From Escherichia coli (lineage in GTDB: Bacteria > Pseudomonadota > Gammaproteobacteria > Enterobacterales > Enterobacteriaceae), in the NCBI RefSeq assembly GCF_003334405.1, contig NZ_QOWM01000008.1: a stretch of 64,000 nt of DNA; one strand, given 5' to 3'. Both the position numbers and the translations under genes were made by a program. Positions within the stretch are counted from its first letter, which is position 1; the number at the start of each line of letters is the position of its first letter. Shown one piece after another: positions 10,404 through 42,169 of this stretch. The notes beneath the pieces are model-generated. The model was not told the origin of the DNA. It saw nothing but the letters and a program-made list of their open reading frames with translations, and made no database searches.

Positions 10404-10435
10404 AGTCAAAAGCCTCCGACCGGAGGCTTTTGACT
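10404..10435. terminator. Bidirectional rho-independent terminator between convergent tonB and yciA
   Basis: 32-nt perfect palindrome agtcaaaagcctccgaccggaggcttttgact directly after tonB stop. Confidence 0.75.
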
Positions 10436-12460: not shown

Positions 12461-12608
12461 ATTAACCAGGATTCTCAATGCAACTTCTAAATTAATCCAG
12501 ATCAATAAAGAGTGAATTATCATATGTAATGTGATCTATGTAGGATCATTTGTTACTCCAATGTAGGTATATTCGTCACGTTTTTATAACCATAACGACG
12601 GAGCGGAT

Positions 12609-13247
12609 ATGAAAAAGTTAACAGTGGCGGCTTTGGCAGTAACAACTCTTCTCTCTGGCAGTGCCTTTGCGCATGAAGCAGGCGAATTTTTTATGCGTGC
12701 AGGTTCTGCAACCGTACGTCCAACAGAAGGTGCTGGTGGTACGTTAGGAAGTCTGGGTGGATTCAGCGTGACCAATAACACGCAACTGGGCCTTACGTTT
12801 ACTTATATGGCGACCGACAACATTGGTGTGGAATTACTGGCAGCGACGCCGTTCCGCCATAAAATCGGCACCCGGGCGACCGGCGATATTGCAACCGTTC
12901 ATCATCTGCCACCAACACTGATGGCGCAGTGGTATTTTGGTGATGCCAGCAGCAAATTCCGTCCTTACGTTGGGGCAGGTATTAACTACACCACCTTCTT
13001 TGATAATGGATTTAACGATCATGGCAAAGAGGCAGGGCTTTCCGATCTCAGTCTGAAAGATTCCTGGGGAGCTGCCGGGCAGGTGGGGGTTGATTATCTG
13101 ATTAACCGTGACTGGTTGGTTAACATGTCAGTGTGGTACATGGATATCGATACCACCGCCAATTATAAGCTGGGCGGTGCACAGCAACACGATAGCGTAC
13201 GCCTCGATCCGTGGGTGTTTATGTTCTCAGCAGGATATCGTTTTTAA
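12609..13247 (+). CDS. ompW: Outer membrane protein W
   Basis: 212-aa ORF; signal peptide ending AFA-HEAG; beta-barrel with C-terminal YRF. Confidence 0.95.
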   Translation: MKKLTVAALAVTTLLSGSAFAHEAGEFFMRAGSATVRPTEGAGGTLGSLGGFSVTNNTQLGLTFTYMATDNIGVELLAATPFRHKIGTRATGDIATVHHLPPTLMAQWYFGDASSKFRPYVGAGINYTTFFDNGFNDHGKEAGLSDLSLKDSWGAAGQVGVDYLINRDWLVNMSVWYMDIDTTANYKLGGAQQHDSVRLDPWVFMFSAGYRF

Positions 13248-13255
13248 TTCCGCAC

Positions 13256-13282
13256 AAAAACGACCCCGTAATATACGGGGTC
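13256..13282. terminator. Terminator hairpin between convergent ompW and yciE
   Basis: gaccccgta-ata-tacggggtc with A-run on the plus side (T-run for the minus-strand transcript). Confidence 0.55.
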
Positions 13283-13306
13283 AATAAGGACATGGTATAA
13301 AGGGTA

Positions 13307-13813
13307 TTATTTCTTCGCTTCTACGCCATCAGTTTCAGAGCGAATTAAAAATTTCTCAGTTGTTTGCGGAATATTCTGAATCAGCCAGTCGGCCATTTGC
13401 TTTTCCTCATTTAAAATCGCTTCGATGGTTGGAATTGAAGCTGTATCACCGGCATTTTTTGCTGCTGCTAATAGTGAGGTGTAACAGGCGATTTCAAATT
13501 GCTCGAAGACATATCCGCTAATAGAGCCTTTGACTATTTCATCAGAAGGGAATATACCACCGATTGACTGCCCAAGCGCAGCCATTTTACTCATGGAATC
13601 TTTAATGACTGAACGTGAAATGTCATTACGATCAAGAATAGTTTCCAGTTGAACAATCTGGTTTTTGGTTTCACTAAGATGTTGTTCAATACGAGCGCGT
13701 AGTTCAGGATAATTATCTATACGGCTGGCCATGGATTCAAGCATAGATTCGGCTTGCTTTTCCATTGCGTGGGCGTCACGTAACCAGTCATGATAATGTT
13801 CAATACGATTCAT
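13307..13813 (-). CDS. yciE: Ferritin-like DUF892 protein YciE
   Basis: 168-aa ORF. Confidence 0.9.
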   Translation of the reverse strand: MNRIEHYHDWLRDAHAMEKQAESMLESMASRIDNYPELRARIEQHLSETKNQIVQLETILDRNDISRSVIKDSMSKMAALGQSIGGIFPSDEIVKGSISGYVFEQFEIACYTSLLAAAKNAGDTASIPTIEAILNEEKQMADWLIQNIPQTTEKFLIRSETDGVEAKK

Positions 13814-13858
13814 GAAAATGTCCTCTTTATAAAATGACTAAAAGTTAAAATTCATATT

Positions 13859-14359
13859 TCAGGCTTTATTTTCGGCTTTCTTATTTACGTTATTAATGGC
13901 CAGATCAGTCAGTTTGATGTCGGTGGCCTTTTCTTCTTCCAGGGTTTCTTTCAGAAGCTTCGCTGCTTTACGGTAACCTAATTGTTCAGCCAGCGTCGCT
14001 AATGTCCCGTAACTGGCAATCTCATAATGCTCGACTTTCTGTGCTGCGGCAATCAGTGCGGCATCACGCACTTCGTTTTTCTCGGTACTTTCGATGACCT
14101 CATTAGCTTCTTCAATAAGACCTTCCATTGCCACACATTTCATGCGCTTAATTTTCAGGTTCGATTCGGACTCCACAACTTGATCAATACGTTCAATCTG
14201 TCCATGAGTTTCCTCGAGGTGCGCATGAAAAGCCTGACTTAATTTTTCATTTGATGTTGCTCTTGCGAGTTTTGCCAGTGCCCGGGTTAATTGTTTTTCT
14301 GCGCTGTAGGTATCTGAAAGCAGGTGAATAAATACATCTTCAATGGTCTTCATATTCAT
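13859..14359 (-). CDS. yciF: Ferritin-like DUF892 protein YciF
   Basis: ORF 13859-14407 minus; start at MNMKT (ATG 14357-14359) with GGAG Shine-Dalgarno gives 166 aa. Confidence 0.88.
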   Translation of the reverse strand: MNMKTIEDVFIHLLSDTYSAEKQLTRALAKLARATSNEKLSQAFHAHLEETHGQIERIDQVVESESNLKIKRMKCVAMEGLIEEANEVIESTEKNEVRDAALIAAAQKVEHYEIASYGTLATLAEQLGYRKAAKLLKETLEEEKATDIKLTDLAINNVNKKAENKA

Positions 14360-14444
14360 ATTTTTCTCCAGTGAAATCACTGCGAGCCATACGGCCCGCA
14401 GATGCAATTATCTTTATCAGCTGATATTAATAATTAACGGTGAA

Positions 14445-14624
14445 TCAGGATTTGCCTGATTTATTACCACCGCTTTGTTGACCGCCTTTTTTACCCGCTT
14501 CAGATGCGCGTTGCGGATCATTTTTAAAATTACCGCCGCTATGCTGACCGCCTTTACGGCCTGCGTCGGATGCCTTCTCACGGTCTTCGGCGAAATTTCC
14601 TGAACCACCACGATGTTCGGCCAT
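14445..14624 (-). CDS. yciG: Small stress protein YciG (KGG-repeat protein)
   Basis: 59-aa form MAEHRGGSGNF... inside ORF 14445-14681; repeated KGGQxSGGN motifs. Confidence 0.8.
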   Translation of the reverse strand: MAEHRGGSGNFAEDREKASDAGRKGGQHSGGNFKNDPQRASEAGKKGGQQSGGNKSGKS

Positions 14625-14970
14625 GTTATTTCTCCCGTTGCGTTGCATTGTTTCATTAATATGAGTGTTGTGTGTCGACACTCATTAAAATTAGTCGCTA
14701 ATGAGAATTAGTCAAATTAAGCGCAACGAGAAGATAGAGGGAAAATATATTTTGAGGAACATTCTGGATATATTAACAATTACCTGAGGAATAAGTGACT
14801 TAGAGAAAATTATTGATTTTACTGGTGTTATGTTGCGGGATTAATTTGTTTGATTATATTACTGTTGGGCGGAAAAATGACGTAAGTTGACGTTCGACCG
14901 GGGTAAGCGAAACGGTAAAAAGATAAATATTAAATGAATTTAGGATTTTTCCGGCTTCATTAAAGAAAGT

Positions 14971-14998
14971 TAAAATGCCGCCAGCGGAACTGGCGGCT
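14971..14998 (-). terminator. trp operon terminator trp t
   Basis: Minus-strand hairpin gccgccagttccgctggcggc followed by UUUU, immediately after trpA stop. Confidence 0.75.
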
Positions 14999-15004
14999 GT
15001 GGGA

Positions 15005-15811
15005 TTAACTGCGCGTCGCCGCTTTCATCGGTTGTACAAAAACTTTCAGTGCCGCCAGCATTTTCTCTGGCTCATTAATATGTTGCTCGATGATTTTAAC
15101 AATGGCCGAACCAGAAATCGCGCCCGCAGCTCCTGCATCAATCGCTGCTTTTACCTGATCCGGGGCGGAAATACCAAATCCCTGCAATGGAGGTGCAGCG
15201 TTGTACTCTTTCAGCTTCGCAACCAGATGATTGAGGGGTAACGCGGCGCGGTTTTCTGCGCCGGTCACGCCTGCTCGTGACAGCAAATAGGTGTAACCAC
15301 GACCGTAAGAGGCTATCTGGCGCAGCAGGTCGTCATCGGCATTTGGCGGGCAGATGAAGATAGGTGCGACATTATGACGCAACGCGGCCTGGCGGAAGGG
15401 CGCGGACTCTTCAACTGGCACATCGGCAACCAGCACCGAATCGACGCCGACTTTTTCGCACTGGGCATAAAACTCATCAATGCCTTTGTTAAACACCAGA
15501 TTGGCATACATCAACAGGCCAATGGGAATGGTCGGGTGTTTCTGGCGAATCAGTGCCAGCATTTCAAAACATTGTGCCGGAGTCACACCTGCCGCAAAGG
15601 CGCGCAGAGTGGCGTTTTGAATCGTCGGGCCATCCGCCAGTGGGTCGGAGAAGGGGATACCTAACTCCAGCGCGTCAGCACCGGCTTCAATTAGCGTATC
15701 GATAATTTTCAATGACTGCTCAATGCCCGGATCACCGAGCGTGACGAAAGGAACGAATGCGCCTTCTTTGCGCTCCTTCAACTGGGCAAACAGAGATTCG
15801 TAGCGTTCCAT
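15005..15811 (-). CDS. trpA: Tryptophan synthase alpha subunit
   Basis: 268-aa ORF; 1-nt overlap with trpB stop. Confidence 0.97.
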
Positions 15812-17004
15812 CAGATTTCCCCTCGTGCTTTCAAAATATCGTGAACGGTGAAGATGTCTTTATCGCCGCGACCGGAAAGGTTAACCACCAGTAGCTGCTC
15901 TTTATCCGGGTTTTCGCGCATCATTTTCAACGCATGGGCCAGGGCGTGGGAGGATTCCAGCGCCGGGATGATCCCTTCGTGCAGGCACAGCGTTTTGAAG
16001 GCTTCAAGGGCTTCATCATCGGTAATAGACACGTAATCAGCGCGTCCAGTGCTGTTAAGATACGCGTGTTGTGGGCCGACAGACGGGAAATCCAGTCCGG
16101 CGGAGATGGAGTAAGATTCTTCAATCTGCCCGTCTTCGGTTTGCATCATCGGCGCTTTCATACCGAAATAGATACCCACGCGACCATGTTTTAGCGGTGC
16201 GCCGTGCTCGCCAGTTTCGATACCGTGACCACCTGGCTCCACACCAATCAGGCCGACGTTGGTTTCATTGATGAAATCAGCAAACATGCCGATGGCATTC
16301 GAACCGCCGCCAACACAGGCGATAACGGCATCCGGCAGGCGACCTTCTCTTTCCAGAATCTGCGCTTTGGTTTCTTCGCCAATCATCCGCTGAAACTCAC
16401 GCACAATGGTCGGATAAGGATGCGGGCCAGCTGCGGTGCCCAGCATATAGTGCGCGGTTTCGTAACTACCGGACCAGTCGCGCAGCGCCTCGTTACAGGC
16501 ATCTTTCAGCGTCGCGGAACCGCTATGCACCGGGATCACTTCCGCACCCATTAAGCGCATACGAAAAACGTTAGGCGACTGGCGTTCAACGTCTTTGGCA
16601 CCCATATAAATACGGCATTTCAGGCCGAGCAGGGCGCTGGCAAGGGCCGACGCCACGCCATGCTGACCGGCACCGGTTTCGGCGATGATTTCGGTTTTAC
16701 CCATCCGCTTCGCCAGCAACGCCTGCCCCAGCACCTGGTTAGTTTTATGCGCGCCGCCGTGCAGCAAATCTTCACGCTTGAGATACAGCGTGGTGTTCGT
16801 CCCGGCTGTAATGTTCTGGCATTTGGTCAGCGCGGTTGGACGCCCGGCATAGTTTTTCAGCAGGTCGTTGAACTGAGCCTGAAATTCAGGATCTTTTTGC
16901 GCACTGACAAAAGCTTCTTCCAGCTGGCGCAGAGCAGGCATCAGGATTTGTGGCACGTACATGCCGCCAAACTCACCAAAATAGGGGTTAAGTAATGTTG
17001 TCAT
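15811..17004 (-). CDS. trpB: Tryptophan synthase beta subunit (PLP-dependent)
   Basis: 397-aa ORF. Confidence 0.97.
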
Positions 17005-17015
17005 TGTTCCTTTCC

Positions 17016-18377
17016 TTAATATGCGCGCAGCGTCTGGAAAACCGAGGCCAAAAGACGTGCGTCTTTGATGCCCGGTTGCGACTCTACAGCAGAATTAAAA
17101 TCAAGTCCGGCGCAGCCGGTTTGTGCCGCTTCCACGCAGTTATCTGCGCCTAAGCCCCCCGCCAGCAGAACGTTGCCAAGCGATTGACCATTTAATAGTG
17201 ACCAGTCAAAACGTTGCCCGCTTCCACCCTGGCCGTTGTCTAAAACATATTTATCAACGTGCTGAAACTCGCGGGCGGGCAGGGTTTCACCGACGCTTAA
17301 TGCTTTCCAGATGGCAACATGTGCTGGCAGAGCTTCACGCAGCGTATCGATATACAGCTGTTCTTCATTACCATGCAGTTGCACTGCCGCCAGCGATAAC
17401 ACCTTAGCTTTGTCCACCACATCGGCAATATCGTGATTGCGGAACACGCCAACATACTGCAACGGTGCCGCAGCCATCACTTCCTGCGCCTGTTCAACGT
17501 TGACGCAACGCGGTGATGTCGCAACAAAAATCAACCCACCGTAAATCGCGCCCGCGTCATAAGCTGCTTTAGCATCTTGCCCACGCGTCAGGCCACATAC
17601 TTTATTCTCACCCAGCAACACCCGGCGCACGGCGGCGTGCAAATCGTCATGGGCCATCAACGCCGAACCAATCAGAAAACCGTTAGCGAAGTGGCTTAAC
17701 TCGCGCACCTGAGCGTAAGTATTGATGCCGGATTCGCTGATTACCGTCACGTTGTGCCCCAGTTTCGGCGCAAGCTCGCGGGTACGGTTGAGATCAATCG
17801 ACAAATCACGCAGATCGCGGTTGTTGATGCCAACGACCTTTGCTCCCAATGCAATGGCGCGCTCCTGTTCCTCTTCATTACTGACTTCGGTCAGCACCCC
17901 CATCTCCAGACTGTGAGCGACGGCGGCAAGCTGGCGATATTGGTCGTCATCCAGTACTGAAAGCATTAATAAGCAGGCATCGGCCTGGTAATAGCGCGCC
18001 AGATAGATCTGGTAAGGGTCGATAATGAAGTCTTTACATAAAATCGGCTGCGGGGCGATTTGGCTGACGATGGGGAGGAAATTAAAGCTCCCCTGAAAAT
18101 ATTTCTCATCAGTCAGCACCGAAATTGCCGAAGCGTAATGTTTATAAATGGCGGCAATGCGTGCTGGATCGAAATCATCACGGATCACGCCTTTTGACGG
18201 CGACGCTTTCTTGCACTCCAGAATAAACGCCGTGCGCGCACCCTGTAGCGCATCATAAAAATGTCGCGTGCTCGGCTGAACCTCATTCTGAAAACTGGCC
18301 AGCGGTTGCTGCTGTTTGCGGGCTTCTACCCAAATCGCCTTGTCTGCGACGATTTTCGCTAAAACGGTTTGCATCAT
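17016..18377 (-). CDS. trpC: Bifunctional indole-3-glycerol-phosphate synthase / phosphoribosylanthranilate isomerase
   Basis: 453-aa ORF. Confidence 0.96.
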
Positions 18378-19973
18378 TTACCCTCGTGCCGCCAGTGCGG
18401 TGACTCTGTCGTAAGCGGAACCACTGCGCAGTACCTCAAGAACGGTTTGCGCATTGGCTTGCAGATCTTCATGGCCATGCAGGCGCATTAACATGGCGAC
18501 GTTCGCAGCGACGGCTGCTTCATGGGCGGCGTCGCCTTTACCTTGTAACAAACGTGTTAAAATGTCACGGTTTTCTTCCGGTGTTCCGCCTGCCAGTTGC
18601 TCCTGGTGGTAGGGTGTCAGGCCAAAGTCTTCTGCGGTGAGCTGATAGCTTTTAATTTCGCCGTCATGCAGTTCGGCAACGATTGTCGGCGCGTGTAATG
18701 AAACTTCATCCATCCCGCCGCTGTGCACCACCGCCGCGCGTTGATACCCCAGCACGCGCAAGGTTTCGGCAATCGGCAGCACCAGTTCCGGACTATAAAC
18801 ACCAATTAACGCCAGCGGCGGATGCGCCGGGTTAATCAATGGCCCCAGCACATTGAACAGGGTGCGGGTTTTCAGTTGCTGGCGAACCGGCATCGCGTGG
18901 CGGAATCCGGTGTGATACTTCGGCGCAAAGAGGAAACATACACCTAACTCATCCAGCGCCTGGCGCGATTTATCGGCGTTCATATCAAGATTAATACCGA
19001 ACGCCGCCAGCAGATCGGACGAACCAGATTTACTGGAGACGCTACGGTTGCCGTGTTTCGCCACTTTCAGCCCACAGGCCGCGGCGACAAACGCACTGGC
19101 GGTAGAAATATTGATACTGTTGCTGCCGTCACCGCCAGTACCGACGATATCAGCAAACAGATAATCCGGGCGCGGGAACGGCGCTGCGTTTTCCAGTAGC
19201 GCGGTTGCTGCCCCGGCGATCTCGTTCGGGTGCTCACCGCGAATTTTCATGCTCACCAGCGCCGCCGCCAGTTGTTCCGGCTTCAGCTCGCCACGCACCA
19301 CCGCTGAAAACAGCTGGTGGCTTTCTTGTTGGCTAAGCGTCTGCGCCTGATACAGTTTTTCCAGAATCGGTTGCAGCGTGTTGGCTGGCTCTAGTTTCTG
19401 CTGCGCCCAGGCCAGCGTTTGTTCCAGCAGGCGAGCGCCCTGGGTGGTGAGAATGGATTCCGGATGGAACTGGAATCCACAAACGCGATCCGCATCGTGA
19501 CGTACTGCCATCACCATGCCATTAAAATGGGCGTTGATGGTTAAACCGGCCGGAATGTTACTGCCAACCAGCGAGTGATAACGCGCCACCGGCAGCGGGT
19601 TTGTTAATCCGGCAAACATCGCCTGACCGTCATGTTCAATGCTGGAGGCTTTACCGTGGAGAATTTCGCCCGCCTGACCGACATAGCCCCCGTAAGCTTC
19701 GACAATCGCCTGATGTCCGAGGCAAATGCCAATAATGGGCAGCTTGCCACGCAAGCGGGTGAGGAGTTCCGGCATACAACCGGCTTCGCTCGGCACACCG
19801 GGGCCAGGAGAAAGCATCAGCACCGGATTGCTCATGGTCGCCAGGCGTTCAATTAAGGTTTGCGCCGGAATATGGTTGCGGTAAATCACCACGTTATGCC
19901 CATTGCTGCGCAACTGATCTGCCAGGTTGTACGTAAAAGAGTCGATATTATCGAGCAGCAGAATGTCAGCCAT
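18378..19973 (-). CDS. trpD: Bifunctional anthranilate synthase component II / anthranilate phosphoribosyltransferase
   Basis: 531-aa ORF; overlaps trpE stop. Confidence 0.96.
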
Positions 19974-21535
19974 CAGAAAGTCTCCTGTGCATGATGCGCG
20001 GTGGCAATAGCGCGCAGTACAGCGCGGGCTTTGTTACGGGTTTCGTCGGCTTCCGACTGCGGAACAGAATCAAGGACTACACCAGCACCCGCTTGCACGG
20101 TGGCGATACCGTTTTCCACCAGCGCCGAGCGGATCACAATGCAGGTGTCGAGATCGCCATGCGCGGTGAAATAACCTACCGCGCCGCCGTAGCTGCCGCG
20201 GCGACGACCTTCCGCCTCGGCAATTAACTGCATAGCGCGTACTTTCGGCGCACCGCTTAACGTCCCCATATTCATACAGGCGCGATAAGCGTGCAGGGCG
20301 TCAAGATCGTGACGCAGTTCGCCGACTACGCGAGAGACGAGGTGCATCACATAGGAATAACGGTCAACTTTGGTGAGATCGGCGACGTAGCGGCTGCCGG
20401 GGGTGCAAATGCGTGCCAGATCATTACGGGCGAGATCAACCAGCATCAGATGTTCAGACAGCTCTTTATGATCGGTACGCATTTCCAGTTCAATACGGCT
20501 GTCGAGATCTCTGTCCAGTGAACCATCGGCGCGACGACCGCGTGGGCGTGTTCCGGCAATCGGGTAGATCTCAATCTGGCGGCTGGTGGCATCATACTTG
20601 AGCGAGCTTTCCGGCGACGCGCCAAATAGGGTGAAATCATTATCCTGCATAAAAAACATGTACGGGCTGGGATTACTCTTTTTCAGCACGTAATAGGCCG
20701 CCAGCGGTGACGGGCAGGGCAGAGAGAAACGGCGAGATGGCACCACCTGGAAAATTTCTCCAGCGCGAATCGCTTTTTGCAACAAACGCACTACGCCACC
20801 GAACTCTTCATCGCTCTGATTACATTCACAACGCATATGCGGCACGGAAACCACTGGCAGCGGCGGCGCGGCTTCGGTCAGTTGCTGACGTAGTTCGTTC
20901 AGGCGAGCAGTGAGACGTTGTTTTTCTTCTTCATTCGGAGCAAACAGGCTGGCCTGAATACGGGTGCTTTTTTTCTGATGGTCAATCACCATCAGCGTTT
21001 CAGCGAGATAAAAACAGAAATCAGGGCAGTTATTTTCCGCTGACAGTTGCGGTAAATCTTCAAATCCCGCCACAAGGTCATAAGAGAACAGGCCGCCGAA
21101 GAACATGGCTTCTCGTTCTTCCTTCGGTACATTCAACAGATTCTGCAATAAACGGAAAGCGTCAAAAACCGAAAGGGAGCATAAGCGGGCGTCTTCATCC
21201 AGCAGTGGACTGACAGGGGGGAAGCGCAGCACACGGCAGTTTGGTGATTGTTCACTTTCCACACCCGCAGGCAGGGCGTTATCCAGTAGTGCCAGCAGGG
21301 CTTCGCCGTTGCCGGAAAGTGCCTGGATTGTGACAGTGTCACCTAAAGCTGTAATGCGCAGCGCACTGTCTACCAGCAGCAGGCTTTTTAAATCATCTTT
21401 GCTGTCGATATCTGCGGATTCCAGCAGCAGCGTTGCCGGACGATCCCCACACAACTGGTGAAAAAGCGCGGTGGGATTGTCGCGATAAGCGCCTTCGCAG
21501 GTTAGCAGTTCGAGAGTCGGTTTTTGTGTTTGCAT
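19973..21535 (-). CDS. trpE: Anthranilate synthase component I
   Basis: 520-aa ORF. Confidence 0.97.
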
Positions 21536-21556
21536 TGTTATTCTCTAATTTTGTTC

Positions 21557-21584
21557 AAAAAAAAGCCCGCTCATTAGGCGGGCT
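21557..21584 (-). terminator. trp attenuator (3:4 terminator hairpin plus U-run)
   Basis: Minus strand reads agcccgcctaatgagcgggcttttttttg between trpL and trpE. Confidence 0.9.
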
Positions 21585-21626
21585 GGGTATCTGATTGCTT
21601 TACGCATGGTGAATACACTGCCCGTT

Positions 21627-21671
21627 TCAGGAAGTGCGCCACCAACCTTTCAGTACGAAAATTGCTTTCAT
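21627..21671 (-). CDS. trpL: trp operon leader peptide [14 protein letters not shown]
   Basis: 14 codons with tandem Trp codons TGG-TGG, read directly on the minus strand. Confidence 0.9.
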
Positions 21672-21698
21672 TGTCGATACCCTTTTTACGTGAACTTG

Positions 21699-21733
21699 CG
21701 TACTAGTTAACTAGTTCGATGATTAATTGTCAA
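21699..21733 (-). promoter_or_regulatory. trp promoter (-35 TTGACA, -10 TTAACT) with overlapping TrpR operator
   Basis: Minus strand reads tgttgacaattaatcatcgaactagttaactagtacgcaagttcacg; core actagttaactagt is palindromic. Confidence 0.85.
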
Positions 21734-21808
21734 CAGCTCATTTCAGAATATTTGCCAGAACCGTTATGATGTCGGCGCAAAAAACATTATCCAGAACGGG
21801 AGTGCGCC

Positions 21809-23307: not shown

Positions 23308-23334
23308 CAAATTGCGTTCCACGGATGGAAGACT

Positions 23335-25230
23335 ATGGCAGGGAAGTTTCGCTGCATTTTGCTGTTGATAGCAGGGCTGTTTGTATCATCTCTAAGTTAT
23401 GCAGAAAACACGGAGATCCCTTCTTATGAAGAAGGGATCTCGCTCTTTGATGTTGAAGCCACTCTGCAACCAGATGGGGTGCTCGACATCAAAGAAAATA
23501 TTCATTTTCAGGCGCGAAATCAGCAGATTAAGCACGGCTTTTATCGTGATTTACCACGACTATGGATGCAGCCTGATGGGGACGCTGCACTGCTGAACTA
23601 TCATATTGTTGGCGTCACCCGTGATGGTATTCCTGAACCCTAGCATCTTGACTGGCATATCGGGTTAATGAGTATTGTCGTGGGCGATAAACAACGTTTC
23701 TTGCCTCAAGGCGACTATCATTATCAAATTCATTATCAGGTTAAAAATGCTTTCCTGCGTGAGGGGGATTCTGATCTGCTAATCTGGAACGTGACCGGTA
23801 ACCACTGGCCGTTTGAAATTTATAAGACCCGTTTTTCTCTCCAGTTCTCTAATATTGCGGGTAATCCATTTAGCGAAATCGATCTCTTTACCGGAGAAGA
23901 GGGCGACACATATCGTAATGGCCGCATCCTTGAGGACGGAAGAATTGAATCCCGCGATCCGTTTTATCGTGAAGATTTCACGGTCCTCTACCGCTGGCCT
24001 CACGCTTTACTTAGCAATGCCTCGGCTCCGCAAACGACGAATATTTTCAGCCATCTTCTTTTACCCTCCACGTCATCGTTGTTAATTTGGTTTCCGTGTC
24101 TGTTCCTGGTTTGTGGATGGTTATATCTCTGGAAGCGCAGGCCGCAATTTACGCCGGTAGATGTGATTGAAACCGATGTCATTCCGCCAGATTACACGCC
24201 CGGCATGTTACGTCTCGATGCGAAGCTAGTTTACGACGATAAAGGTTTTTGTGCCGATATCGTAAATCTGATTGTGAAAGGAAAAATTCATCTGGAAGAT
24301 CAGTCTGACAAGAACCAGCAAATCCTGATTCGTGTTAATGAAGGCGCGACCAGAAATAATGCGGTATTACTGCCCGCAGAGCAGTTATTACTGGAAGCGT
24401 TATTTCGTAAAGGCGATAAGGTCGTTCTTACGGGGAGACGCAACAGAGTCTTACGCAGGGCATTTTTACGGATGCAGAAATTTTATCTGCCGCGTAAAAA
24501 GTCTTCGTTTTACCGGTCTGATACTTTTTTGCAATGGGGTGGACTGGCAATATTGGCGGTCATTCTTTACGGTAACTTGAGTCCTGTAGGCTGGGCAGGA
24601 ATGAGTCTGGTGGGCGATATGTTTATTATGATCTGCTGGATTATTCCTTTTTTATTTTGTTCCCTTGAGCTTTTGTTTGCCCGCGATGATGACAAGCCTT
24701 GCGTTAATCGTGTAATCATCACTTTGTTTTTACCACTGATTTGTTCAGGCGTGGCCTTCTATTCTCTCTACATCAATGTCGGAGATGTATTCTTTTACTG
24801 GTATATGCCAGCGGGTTATTTTACCGCTGTTTGCCTGACCGGTTATCTCACTGGCATGGGGTATATTTTTCTGCCAAAGTTTACCCAAACTGGACAGCAA
24901 CGTTATGCCCACGGTGAAGCTATCGTTAACTATCTTGCGCGTAAAGAGGCAGCAACACACAGTGGACGTCGGCGGAAAGGGGAAACACGGAAACTGGATT
25001 ACGCGTTGCTAGGTTGGGCTATATCGGCAAATTTGGGGAGGGAATGGGCGTTACGCATTGCCCCTTCGCTTTCTTCGGCGATTCGCGCTCCAGAGATTGC
25101 CCGTAACGGCGTTTTATTCTCATTACAGACGCACCTAAGTTGCGGGGCCAATACCAGTTTGTTGGGGCGAAGTTATTCCGGTGGTGGTGCTGGCGGCGGC
25201 GCGGGTGGCGGAGGCGGTGGTGGCTGGTAA
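23335..25230 (+). pseudogene. yciQ: DUF2207 membrane protein YciQ interrupted by one in-frame TAG at 23641-23643
   Basis: Track ORFs 23335-23643 (102 aa) and 23668-25230 (520 aa) are in the same frame, separated only by the TAG plus 8 sense codons; 102+1+8+520 = 631 codons; signal peptide only in the N-fragment. Confidence 0.6.
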
Positions 25231-25357
25231 TTAAGCTGATGTTAATCGAAACAAGCTTTAACCATAAAGATAGTGTAGTATGTTGCGCCTCAAAGCCAGG
25301 CCGATAAACGTCGAGTCGTTTACTTAAGGCCTGAAGAGTTCAAACAGACTTTACTAT

Positions 25358-25388
25358 CAGTGAGTCAGATGTAAGTTCTGACTCACTG
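25358..25388. other. Perfect 12-bp-stem inverted repeat in the yciQ–rluB spacer
   Basis: cagtgagtcaga-tgtaagt-tctgactcactg; no T-run on either side. Confidence 0.7.
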
Positions 25389-25440
25389 TTGCACAAAAGC
25401 ATATCAGACGCCTGGGAAGGCGACACCAAAAGGAAGCTCT

Positions 25441-26316
25441 ATGAGCGAAAAGCTACAGAAAGTGCTGGCGCGTGCCGGCCACGGTTCTCGCCGTGAAATC
25501 GAATCTATTATTGAAGCCGGTCGTGTGAGTGTTGATGGCAAAATTGCTAAACTCGGCGATCGTGTTGAAGTTACCCCTGGATTGAAAATCCGTATCGATG
25601 GTCACCTGATTTCGGTACGTGAGTCCGCTGAACAAATTTGTCGCGTTCTGGCCTATTACAAACCGGAAGGTGAGTTGTGTACCCGTAACGATCCGGAAGG
25701 ACGTCCAACGGTGTTTGACCGTCTGCCAAAACTGCGTGGCGCACGCTGGATTGCCGTGGGTCGCTTGGACGTTAATACCTGTGGTCTGCTGCTGTTCACC
25801 ACCGATGGTGAACTGGCAAACCGTTTAATGCACCCAAGCCGTGAAGTTGAACGTGAATATGCCGTGCGTGTATTTGGTCAGGTTGACGACGCGAAACTGC
25901 GTGATTTGAGTCGTGGCGTGCAGTTGGAAGATGGTCCGGCAGCTTTTAAAACCATCAAGTTCAGCGGCGGCGAAGGGATCAACCAGTGGTACAACGTGAC
26001 TCTGACCGAAGGCCGTAACCGTGAAGTTCGTCGTCTGTGGGAAGCGGTTGGTGTGCAGGTGAGCCGCCTGATCCGTGTTCGTTACGGTGATATCCCACTG
26101 CCAAAAGGTCTGCCACGCGGTGGCTGGACGGAGCTGGACCTCGCCCAGACTAACTATCTGCGCGAACTGGTGGAGCTACCGCCAGAAACCAGCTCTAAAG
26201 TCGCTGTAGAAAAAGACCGTCGTCGCATGAAGGCGAATCAGATTCGTCGTGCGGTGAAACGTCACAGTCAGGTGAGCGGCGGTCGTCGTTCTGGCGGACG
26301 TAATAATAACGGTTAA
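25441..26316 (+). CDS. rluB: 23S rRNA pseudouridine synthase RluB
   Basis: 291-aa ORF; S4 domain then RsuA-type catalytic domain; Arg/Gly-rich C-terminal tail. Confidence 0.95.
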
Positions 26317-42139: not shown

Positions 42140-42169
42140 CGGATGATTTGCCAAACTGCAAATCATCCG
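42140..42169. other. Perfect 12-bp-stem inverted repeat just downstream of yciT stop, far upstream of osmB
   Basis: cggatgatttgc-caaact-gcaaatcatccg. Confidence 0.7.

Follow-up and report, generated by a model that had tools for sequence, protein, structure and literature searches.

The inverted repeat upstream of rluB in Escherichia coli is a stem-loop of the mRNA leader and apparently derives from the arm of a decayed integrative island

The yciQ–rluB spacer and the transcribed rluB leader

The window, a 64-kb stretch of E. coli DNA analysed at its full length of 64,000 nucleotides, carries yciQ and rluB, and a perfect inverted repeat (hereafter the dyad) lies in the spacer between the two genes. 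Positions 25225–25445 are identical to K-12 MG1655, and the gene names rluB and yciQ are correct. Window coordinates equal NC_000913.3 coordinates minus 1301411, which places the dyad at K-12 1326769–1326799. According to a repeat finder, its two 12-nt arms are 100% complementary and 7 nt apart, and they occupy exactly the positions given in the initial annotation (25358–25388), which was also right about the distances to the neighboring genes: the rluB ATG at 25441 lies 52 nt past the end of the dyad, and the dyad begins 127 nt after the yciQ stop at 25230. The flank 3' of the dyad reads TTGCACAAAAGC on the plus strand and ATAGTAAAGTCT on the minus strand, the respective tails being UUGCACAAAAGC and AUAGUAAAGUCU; there is a T-run on neither, in agreement with the earlier claim that no U-run follows on either strand. 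The features of the spacer and of two related islands are listed in Table 1.

Table 1. Positions of features in the yciQ–rluB spacer (window coordinates) and of two E. coli islands (coordinates of loci L088 and L093)
Feature	Position	Strand	Remarks
rluB -10 hexamer TAGTAT	25276..25281	+	7 nt upstream of published start
rluB 5' UTR	25289..25440	+	152 nt, from published starts; ATG at 25441
Fossil integrase N-terminus (by alignment)	25260..25289	-	G-A-T-Y-Y-T-I-F-M-V, compared with intact G-R-T-Y-Y-T-N-F-R-L; stop codon precedes
Dyad	25358..25388	+	cagtgagtcaga-tgtaagt-tctgactcactg; arms 25358-25369 and 25377-25388; loop 25370-25376
Tail after stem	25389..25406	+	TTGCACAAAAGCATATCA; homologous to TTGTTTTTGAAAGTATACCA in other species
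Extended -10 TGaTATGCT	25398..25406	-	homologous to TGgTATACT in intact arms
GNRA-type-loop hairpin	25407..25424	+	GACGCCTGGGAAGGCGAC, CGCCU[GGGA]AGGCG; 16 nt before rluB ATG
H15 island (L088)	13406-21727		8.3 kb; repeats 13390-13405 and 21728-21743, perfect 16 bp
A17 island (L093)	12594-21695		9.1 kb; repeats 12578-12593 and 21696-21711, same 16 bp

Perfect inverted repeats of at least 12 bp with a loop of 3–10 nt occur at four places in the 64 kb, compared with a chance level of 0.03 per window in 30 first-order Markov simulations, and the dyad is more than a chance occurrence. As RNA, it is predicted to fold into a hairpin of -20.1 kcal/mol (z-score -5.4 relative to shuffled sequences); the corresponding minus-strand RNA reaches -19.6 kcal/mol in E. 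coli. A scan of 24900–25800 against Rfam, with E values of up to 10, gave only chance-level snoRNA matches far under their gathering scores. No second copy of a dyad arm is present in the window, even when one mismatch is allowed (0.13 expected). The search for the same dyad elsewhere in the genome that the initial annotation had proposed gave one copy per genome: the dyad is found in 3977 of 5426 complete E. coli genomes, with a median of one place per genome, and this single copy rules out a dispersed intergenic repeat of the REP/BIME, ERIC or MITE kind. An AUG-UAA start-stop pair at 25369–25374, in the dyad loop, is probably a matter of chance; it is broken by the allele A25373C and absent from other species. 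The dyad also resembles what we take to be the sequence of helix 93 of 23S rRNA (GUGAGNCAG...GUUC), but this holds for E. coli alone and was treated as chance.

Some other features of the window were noted in passing. Two more perfect inverted repeats lie at 10404–10435 (AGTCAAAAGCCTCCGACCGGAGGCTTTTGACT), which looks like a bidirectional terminator between tonB and yciA, and at 42140–42169, just past the yciT stop and without a T-run. The 5' part of the yciQ coding sequence holds a perfect 13-bp palindrome, GAGATCCCTTCTT-ATG-AAGAAGGGATCTC, at 23413–23441. At 23641–23643, yciQ has an in-frame TAG where K-12 has TGG, which leaves ORFs at 23335–23643 and 23668–25230. The segment 23560–23720 is found identical in a single one of 5426 complete genomes (strain N61), and the TAG is thus a rare nonsense allele.

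Published data on transcript starts place the dyad within the rluB mRNA. The Class I forward start of rluB determined by dRNA-seq lies at U00096.2 1324724–1324725 (Romero et al. 2014, PMC4681348), and SMRT-Cappable-seq yielded a full-length capped transcript at NC_000913.3 1326700–1327761 that covers b1269 only, and a further start of rluB lies at 1326297 in that data set (Yan et al. 2018, PMC6131387). After an offset of +1976 is applied to convert U00096.2 into NC_000913.3 coordinates, the rluB starts of both data sets agree. Two independent K-12 data sets therefore put the primary rluB start at window 25289, and the dyad occupies +70 to +100 of the mRNA. Strong structure is predicted for the leader over its full length (fold z-score -4.5). 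The hexamer TAGTAT had been picked as the -10 element from the sequence ahead of consulting the published starts, and the GC-rich discriminator GTTGCGC follows it at 25282–25288. A consensus promoter scan found no plus-strand promoter in the yciQ–rluB spacer; we assign the rluB promoter on the basis of the published start together with the conserved TAGTAT. A GC-rich discriminator between the -10 element and the start is present in all three leader types described below, in keeping with growth-rate or stringent control. A higher abundance of RluB in the exponential phase has been reported (PMC12236707).

The sole rluB-associated 3' end on the plus strand in Term-seq is 1327761, and the published tables give none in the yciQ–rluB spacer (Adams et al. 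2021, PMC7815308). Capped full-length transcripts read through the dyad to the rluB terminator at 1327761 (PMC6131387), SMRT-Cappable-seq being a method that selects long molecules and would miss short attenuated transcripts. Because the start lies upstream and no 3' end is found in the spacer, the dyad is transcribed and read through in E. coli. Taken together, we conclude that the dyad is a stem-loop in the rluB mRNA leader: it lies inside the primary transcript, and its pairing on the sense strand is accompanied by covariation, as described below. A 5'-UTR structure had been one of three options in the initial annotation, and it is the one that the published starts (PMC4681348, PMC6131387) bear out. 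The annotation had also held that the repeat is not a typical intrinsic terminator and had named Term-seq as a check. This view stands for E. coli, where the stem is stable (12 bp, -20.1 kcal/mol) but the U-run is missing, a terminator scan is silent, and no RNA 3' end is reported at the dyad, although short products could escape detection.

Homologous leaders across Enterobacterales

We compared the rluB locus in 80 Enterobacterales species and found yciQ in none of these loci. An 18-nt element, GACGCCTG[T/G]GAAGGCGAC, precedes rluB and is invariant apart from the T/G position in 79 of the 80 species loci. Its fold is CGCCU[GNGA]AGGCG, with GUGA or GGGA as the loop. The first 16 nt of the element, GACGCCTGTGAAGGCG, lie 18 nt downstream of the dyad and are the same as the direct repeat of the islands described in the next section. 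Upstream of the element, the leader is of one of three types. Type A is short and comes directly after yciO, as in E. albertii, Citrobacter, Enterobacter and yciQ-less E. coli. Type B consists of ATCAGTGAGTTA-loop-TAACTC[G/A]TTG followed by TTTTTGAAAGTATACCA, and type C has a near-consensus promoter, GGTTACA-N17-TGTATAAT. The dyad of E. coli corresponds to the hairpin of type B.

For the analysis of covariation, 23 type B leaders of related species, picked from loci showing the motif, were aligned. In the helix, 84% of the cells are paired across the 23 species, compared with at most 52% of whole-structure cells after the partners were slid; 9 of the 12 helix pairs are changed on both sides, and none of 500 shuffles matched the observed helix covariation. 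The wobbles are asymmetric, with 28 G·U on the plus strand against 3 A·C, and the plus-strand fold is more stable than that of the minus strand in 23 of 23 species (mean -12.9 vs -6.6 kcal/mol). The spacing between the arms ranges from 4 to 18 nt among the homologues. Together, these features speak for an RNA helix on the sense strand of rluB and not for a fixed protein dyad. Pairing in the homologous hairpins is preserved by covarying changes and favors the rluB-sense strand; it is kept in genera as distant as Yersinia and Erwinia, integrase-less sites included. The initial annotation had named conservation in related species as a test of the dyad, and a homologous hairpin is indeed found in 23 Enterobacterales species, whereas its option of a regulator-binding dyad is disfavored for any protein of fixed geometry by the 4–18 nt spacing.

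In most species the hairpin is followed by a U-run, UUGUUUUUG. The Escherichia tail, TTGCACAAAAG, is homologous to this U-run (Table 1), suggesting that the U-run was lost in Escherichia. The Kosakonia homologue was flagged as a plus-strand terminator-like site with 14 pairs and the tail TTTTTGAAAG, and leaders free of islands likewise have a hairpin and a U-rich tract before the 16-bp core.

Variation closer to E. coli was also examined. An Escherichia sp. locus (L008) has the same decayed spacer, with arms CAGTGGGGCAGG and TCTGCCCCACTG. These arms differ from those of the window at five positions and keep 12 of 12 pairs, an outcome with a chance of 0.002 under random substitutions and of 0.08 if only transitions are considered. 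Within E. coli, 2640 genomes share the same 47 nt around the dyad, and another 1337 have one difference there; among the alleles sampled, two carry changes in the loop and one is C25386T, by which a G·U arises on the plus strand.

Integrative islands at the 16-bp core

Approximately 68 nt from the 18-nt element, Kosakonia and Erwinia have the start of a 555-aa ORF that is read from the opposite strand. The ORF encodes a tyrosine integrase (phrog_1, E = 4e-31) and is divergent from rluB. An integrase that is 82% identical to the Kosakonia protein is intact and divergent from rluB in six complete E. coli genomes, and the two of these that were inspected, H15 and A17, both carry full islands (Table 1). 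The H15 island sits between yciO and rluB with the type A spacer preserved at its left junction, and it carries YagK/YfjJ, DUF4238, a serine recombinase and the integrase. Across H15 and A17, we noted a 2.3-kb DUF4238 protein, a serine recombinase, YagK/YfjJ, and RelA/SpoT-domain, HTH and DUF6150 proteins, a cargo that could be of the defense type. Repeats of TGTGTGACA are present on both island arms, about 70–130 bp from the core. Because direct repeats flank the H15 and A17 islands and the type A spacer stands at the left junction, the invariant leader element is, on the evidence of these sequences, the att core, and type A corresponds to the empty site. The window has one copy of the core only, with no second copy that would mark a left junction.

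We rejected three further interpretations of these sequences. A tyrosine-recombinase core site of the 12+7+12 form does not agree with the 4–18 nt spacing of the homologues, and the duplicated sequence is the 16-bp GACGCCTGTGAAGGCG, not the dyad. The stretch read as a Cys-rich leader peptide (MCAHESLCVTACV...) in other species corresponds, in reverse complement, to the N-terminal codons of the integrase and the TGTGTGACA repeats. A phage origin of the integrase was set aside because the phage collections searched hold no relatives: the integrase has no match in 50,697 phage records, and the arm-plus-core 19-mer has none in IMG/VR.

At the DNA level, the window spacer aligns with the H15 and Kosakonia island arms. 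The rluB -10 region is conserved in island arms as GTGTAGTATGTGCGCC, the upstream element of type B, whose opposite strand encodes the integrase residues RGRTYYT, and the rluB -10 hexamer TAGTAT overlies the Tyr-Tyr codons of the fossil integrase on the opposite strand. The spacer contains no integrase body, no TGTGTGACA repeats and no second copy of the core. The segment of approximately 25250–25406 is homologous to the integrase-proximal arm of islands that insert at the 16-bp core GACGCCTGKGAAGGCG. The island of K-12-type E. coli is a decayed one, with the integrase and the left junction gone, and yciQ fills what remains of the yciO–rluB interval.

This interval (window 23308–25406; loci L001, L088 and L093) is polymorphic in E. 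coli. The 3977 genomes with the dyad carry yciQ and the fossil arm, and at least about 940 have a partial match only; in L001, the sole partial-match genome inspected, yciO is followed directly by rluB. Varied cargo in the yciO–rluB interval was also seen in other genera, such as an Hcp-like ORF in Leclercia (L027). A non-tRNA attachment site, the 16-bp rluB-leader sequence that is nearly invariant in Enterobacterales, is identified and would account both for yciQ being present in some genomes and absent from others and for the differing gene content of the yciO–rluB interval. Our literature search returned no paper linking rluB to yciQ, an integrase or an island at this site, and the history of the dyad and of the adjoining attachment site appears to be undescribed; taken alone, the dyad is of a familiar kind, being a leader stem-loop and an inverted repeat of an att arm.

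Origin and present role of the stem-loop

We consider it probable that the dyad is an rluB leader stem-loop derived from an island arm and that it serves today, most likely, as a non-terminating structural module. Insertion at the core would separate rluB from its native promoter, so that the island arm would have to supply an outward promoter and a leader; in K-12, the mapped start would represent this arm-derived outward promoter, which lies on fossil integrase codons. In intact arms, the inverted repeat would consist of two inverted copies of an ATCARTGAGTTA motif matching the IHF core consensus, and the sense RNA is predicted to form a weak terminator-like hairpin with a U-run, parallel to the layout of island-free leaders. 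The ancestral hairpin was probably a weak leader terminator or attenuator. In Escherichia, the U-run would then have been lost, so that the hairpin would no longer terminate, and the stem would have been tightened to a perfect 12 bp. At present, the stem-loop may act on RNA polymerase by slowing or pausing it, may shield the leader from degradation, or may prevent pairing of the upstream UTR with the conserved hairpin and the ribosome-binding site downstream. If the hairpin is a decayed attenuator, short products are expected after UUGUUUUU in island arms and none in K-12. The perfect symmetry seen in E. coli and L008 could, however, arise without selection, by quasipalindrome template-switch correction, and part of the conservation may be exerted at the DNA level, given that the IHF-type motif also occurs on the other island arm.

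The same template switching, together with a short time of decay, would account for the perfection of the stem if the dyad were a remnant of the island arm with no present function. The spacer is demonstrably a decayed island arm; approximately 27% of complete E. coli genomes are without the dyad spacer (present in 3977 of 5426), and genomes in which yciO adjoins rluB, as in L001, evidently manage without the dyad. Furthermore, the Escherichia stems have only Watson-Crick pairs or a single wobble, as template switching predicts, and between the window and L008 the hairpin has diverged faster than its flanks (9 of 31 positions vs 15 of 163). We nevertheless regard such a functionless remnant, the foremost alternative, as unlikely, while giving it appreciable weight. 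Copying at the DNA level favors no strand, and the one-strand G·U bias that is kept across distant genera, at integrase-less sites too, thus counts against it; moreover, the common variant C25386T produces a G·U instead of a corrected pair.

Alternatively, the arms may act as DNA, as sites inherited from the att arm that bind IHF or another nucleoid or recombination-accessory protein and now influence the rluB promoter or the antisense promoter. The IHF consensus is WATCARNNNNTTR, and in lambda att sites an IHF bend is located between the core and the arm sites. Intact arms carry TATCAGTTAGTTA, a perfect match found in the H15 arm; in E. coli the 5' arm, TATCAGTGAGTCA, agrees at 12 of 13 positions with one mismatch, and the bottom strand of the 3' arm has 3–4 mismatches. 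On the other island arm, the stretch from the core to the TGTGTGACA repeats contains AATCAATGAGTTA or AATCAATGAATTG, at the place where an IHF bend would be expected in a lambda- or P4-type att site, and motifs of the ATCA[A/G]TGAGTTA type lie between the TGTGTGACA repeats and the core on both island arms. The 4–18 nt range of arm spacing, the loss of the consensus TT from L008 with its pairing kept, and the strand-biased wobbles, which a DNA site leaves unexplained, make this role of the dyad improbable in our judgment. We give very little credence to the third option of the initial annotation, a processing site cleaved by RNase III or another nuclease, or to an end of the yciQ transcript, both of which are suggested by the perfect stem downstream of yciQ. 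Typical RNase III substrates offer roughly two helical turns, about 20 bp or more of double-stranded RNA, and the stem has 12 bp. As for termination, no U-run follows the stem, Term-seq has no 3' end in the spacer, and the rnm-yciO transcript ends earlier than the annotated rnm-yciO-yciQ unit (PMC6131387).

It also seems highly doubtful that the hairpin belongs to an antisense RNA, where it would occupy +3 to +33 of a minus-strand transcript from 25391 and stabilize an RNA overlapping the promoter and leader of rluB. One published reverse start of Class II, RVS_(II)-1324826 in U00096.2 (PMC4681348), corresponds to window 25391 with the +1976 offset, and the RNA from it would begin 3 nt before the dyad. 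The extended -10 TGaTATGCT is homologous to TGgTATACT beside the core in intact arms; we infer from this homology that it is a putative fossil integrase promoter, which fits the antisense start. The minus-strand hairpin is stable in E. coli (-19.6 kcal/mol). However, a Class II start is one that is enriched with no transcript edge following it (PMC4681348), and SMRT-Cappable-seq has no reverse start at 25391 (PMC6131387). Among the 22 species other than E. coli, the fold of the minus strand is far less stable, and in none does it surpass that of the plus strand.

A more ambitious version of the leader stem-loop, in which the level of rluB expression is set by a conserved regulatory leader made up of the dyad hairpin, the following tract and the GNRA-loop hairpin, is in our opinion a long shot. 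If this were the case, premature termination or translational control responding to the state of ribosome assembly would be possible, or else control by RluB itself through a hairpin that loosely resembles its substrate, which we take to be helix 93 of 23S rRNA, also with a GUGA loop. In that case, islands targeting the core would need to bring along a working version of the leader's upstream half, which would explain why native and island-derived leaders converge on one layout.

With the preferred reading, an island-derived and non-terminating leader stem-loop, the unannotated K-12 spacer gains a promoter for rluB, a structured leader of 152 nt and a stem-loop within it, and the end of a decayed integrative island would be the source from which the promoter and leader were recruited. 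In practical terms the value is modest and lies in better annotation, in a testable instance of promoter capture from a mobile element, and in a candidate leader of a ribosome-modification enzyme whose abundance depends on the growth phase (PMC12236707).

The rluB leader can be compared with several known systems. It is similar to leader terminators and attenuators in that, in most species, a hairpin with UUGUUUUUG after it stands upstream of the rluB ribosome-binding site and downstream of the promoter, with an analogous hairpin and U-rich tract in island-free leaders; it differs in that the U-run has been lost in E. coli, for which published data show no premature 3' end. We found neither an antiterminator alternative nor a leader peptide nor a ligand-binding fold in the rluB leader, and it has no Rfam match. 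Like the stabilizing stem-loops in 5' UTRs of the ompA type, the dyad is a stable hairpin within a long structured leader, but it is located 70 nt from the 5' end, not at the end.

The arm from which the dyad appears to derive shares several traits with lambda- and P4-type att arms. The 16-bp core of the island is repeated at both ends, TGTGTGACA repeats occur on both arms with IHF-consensus motifs on their core side, and the island integrase begins approximately 68 bp from the core with its -10 element beside the core. Unlike those systems, the target is the conserved 5' UTR hairpin of a protein-coding gene, not a tRNA gene, and the window holds a decayed arm only, with neither an integrase nor a left junction nor TGTGTGACA repeats. 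Finally, some elements rebuild the gene that they target: islands at tRNA genes restore the tRNA 3' end, and prophages can supply a promoter. The rluB islands are comparable to these, as insertion parts rluB from its native promoter and the outward start of the arm drives rluB in K-12. Here, however, it is the promoter and the upstream leader that are replaced, not coding or tRNA sequence, and the replacement at rluB has outlived the island.
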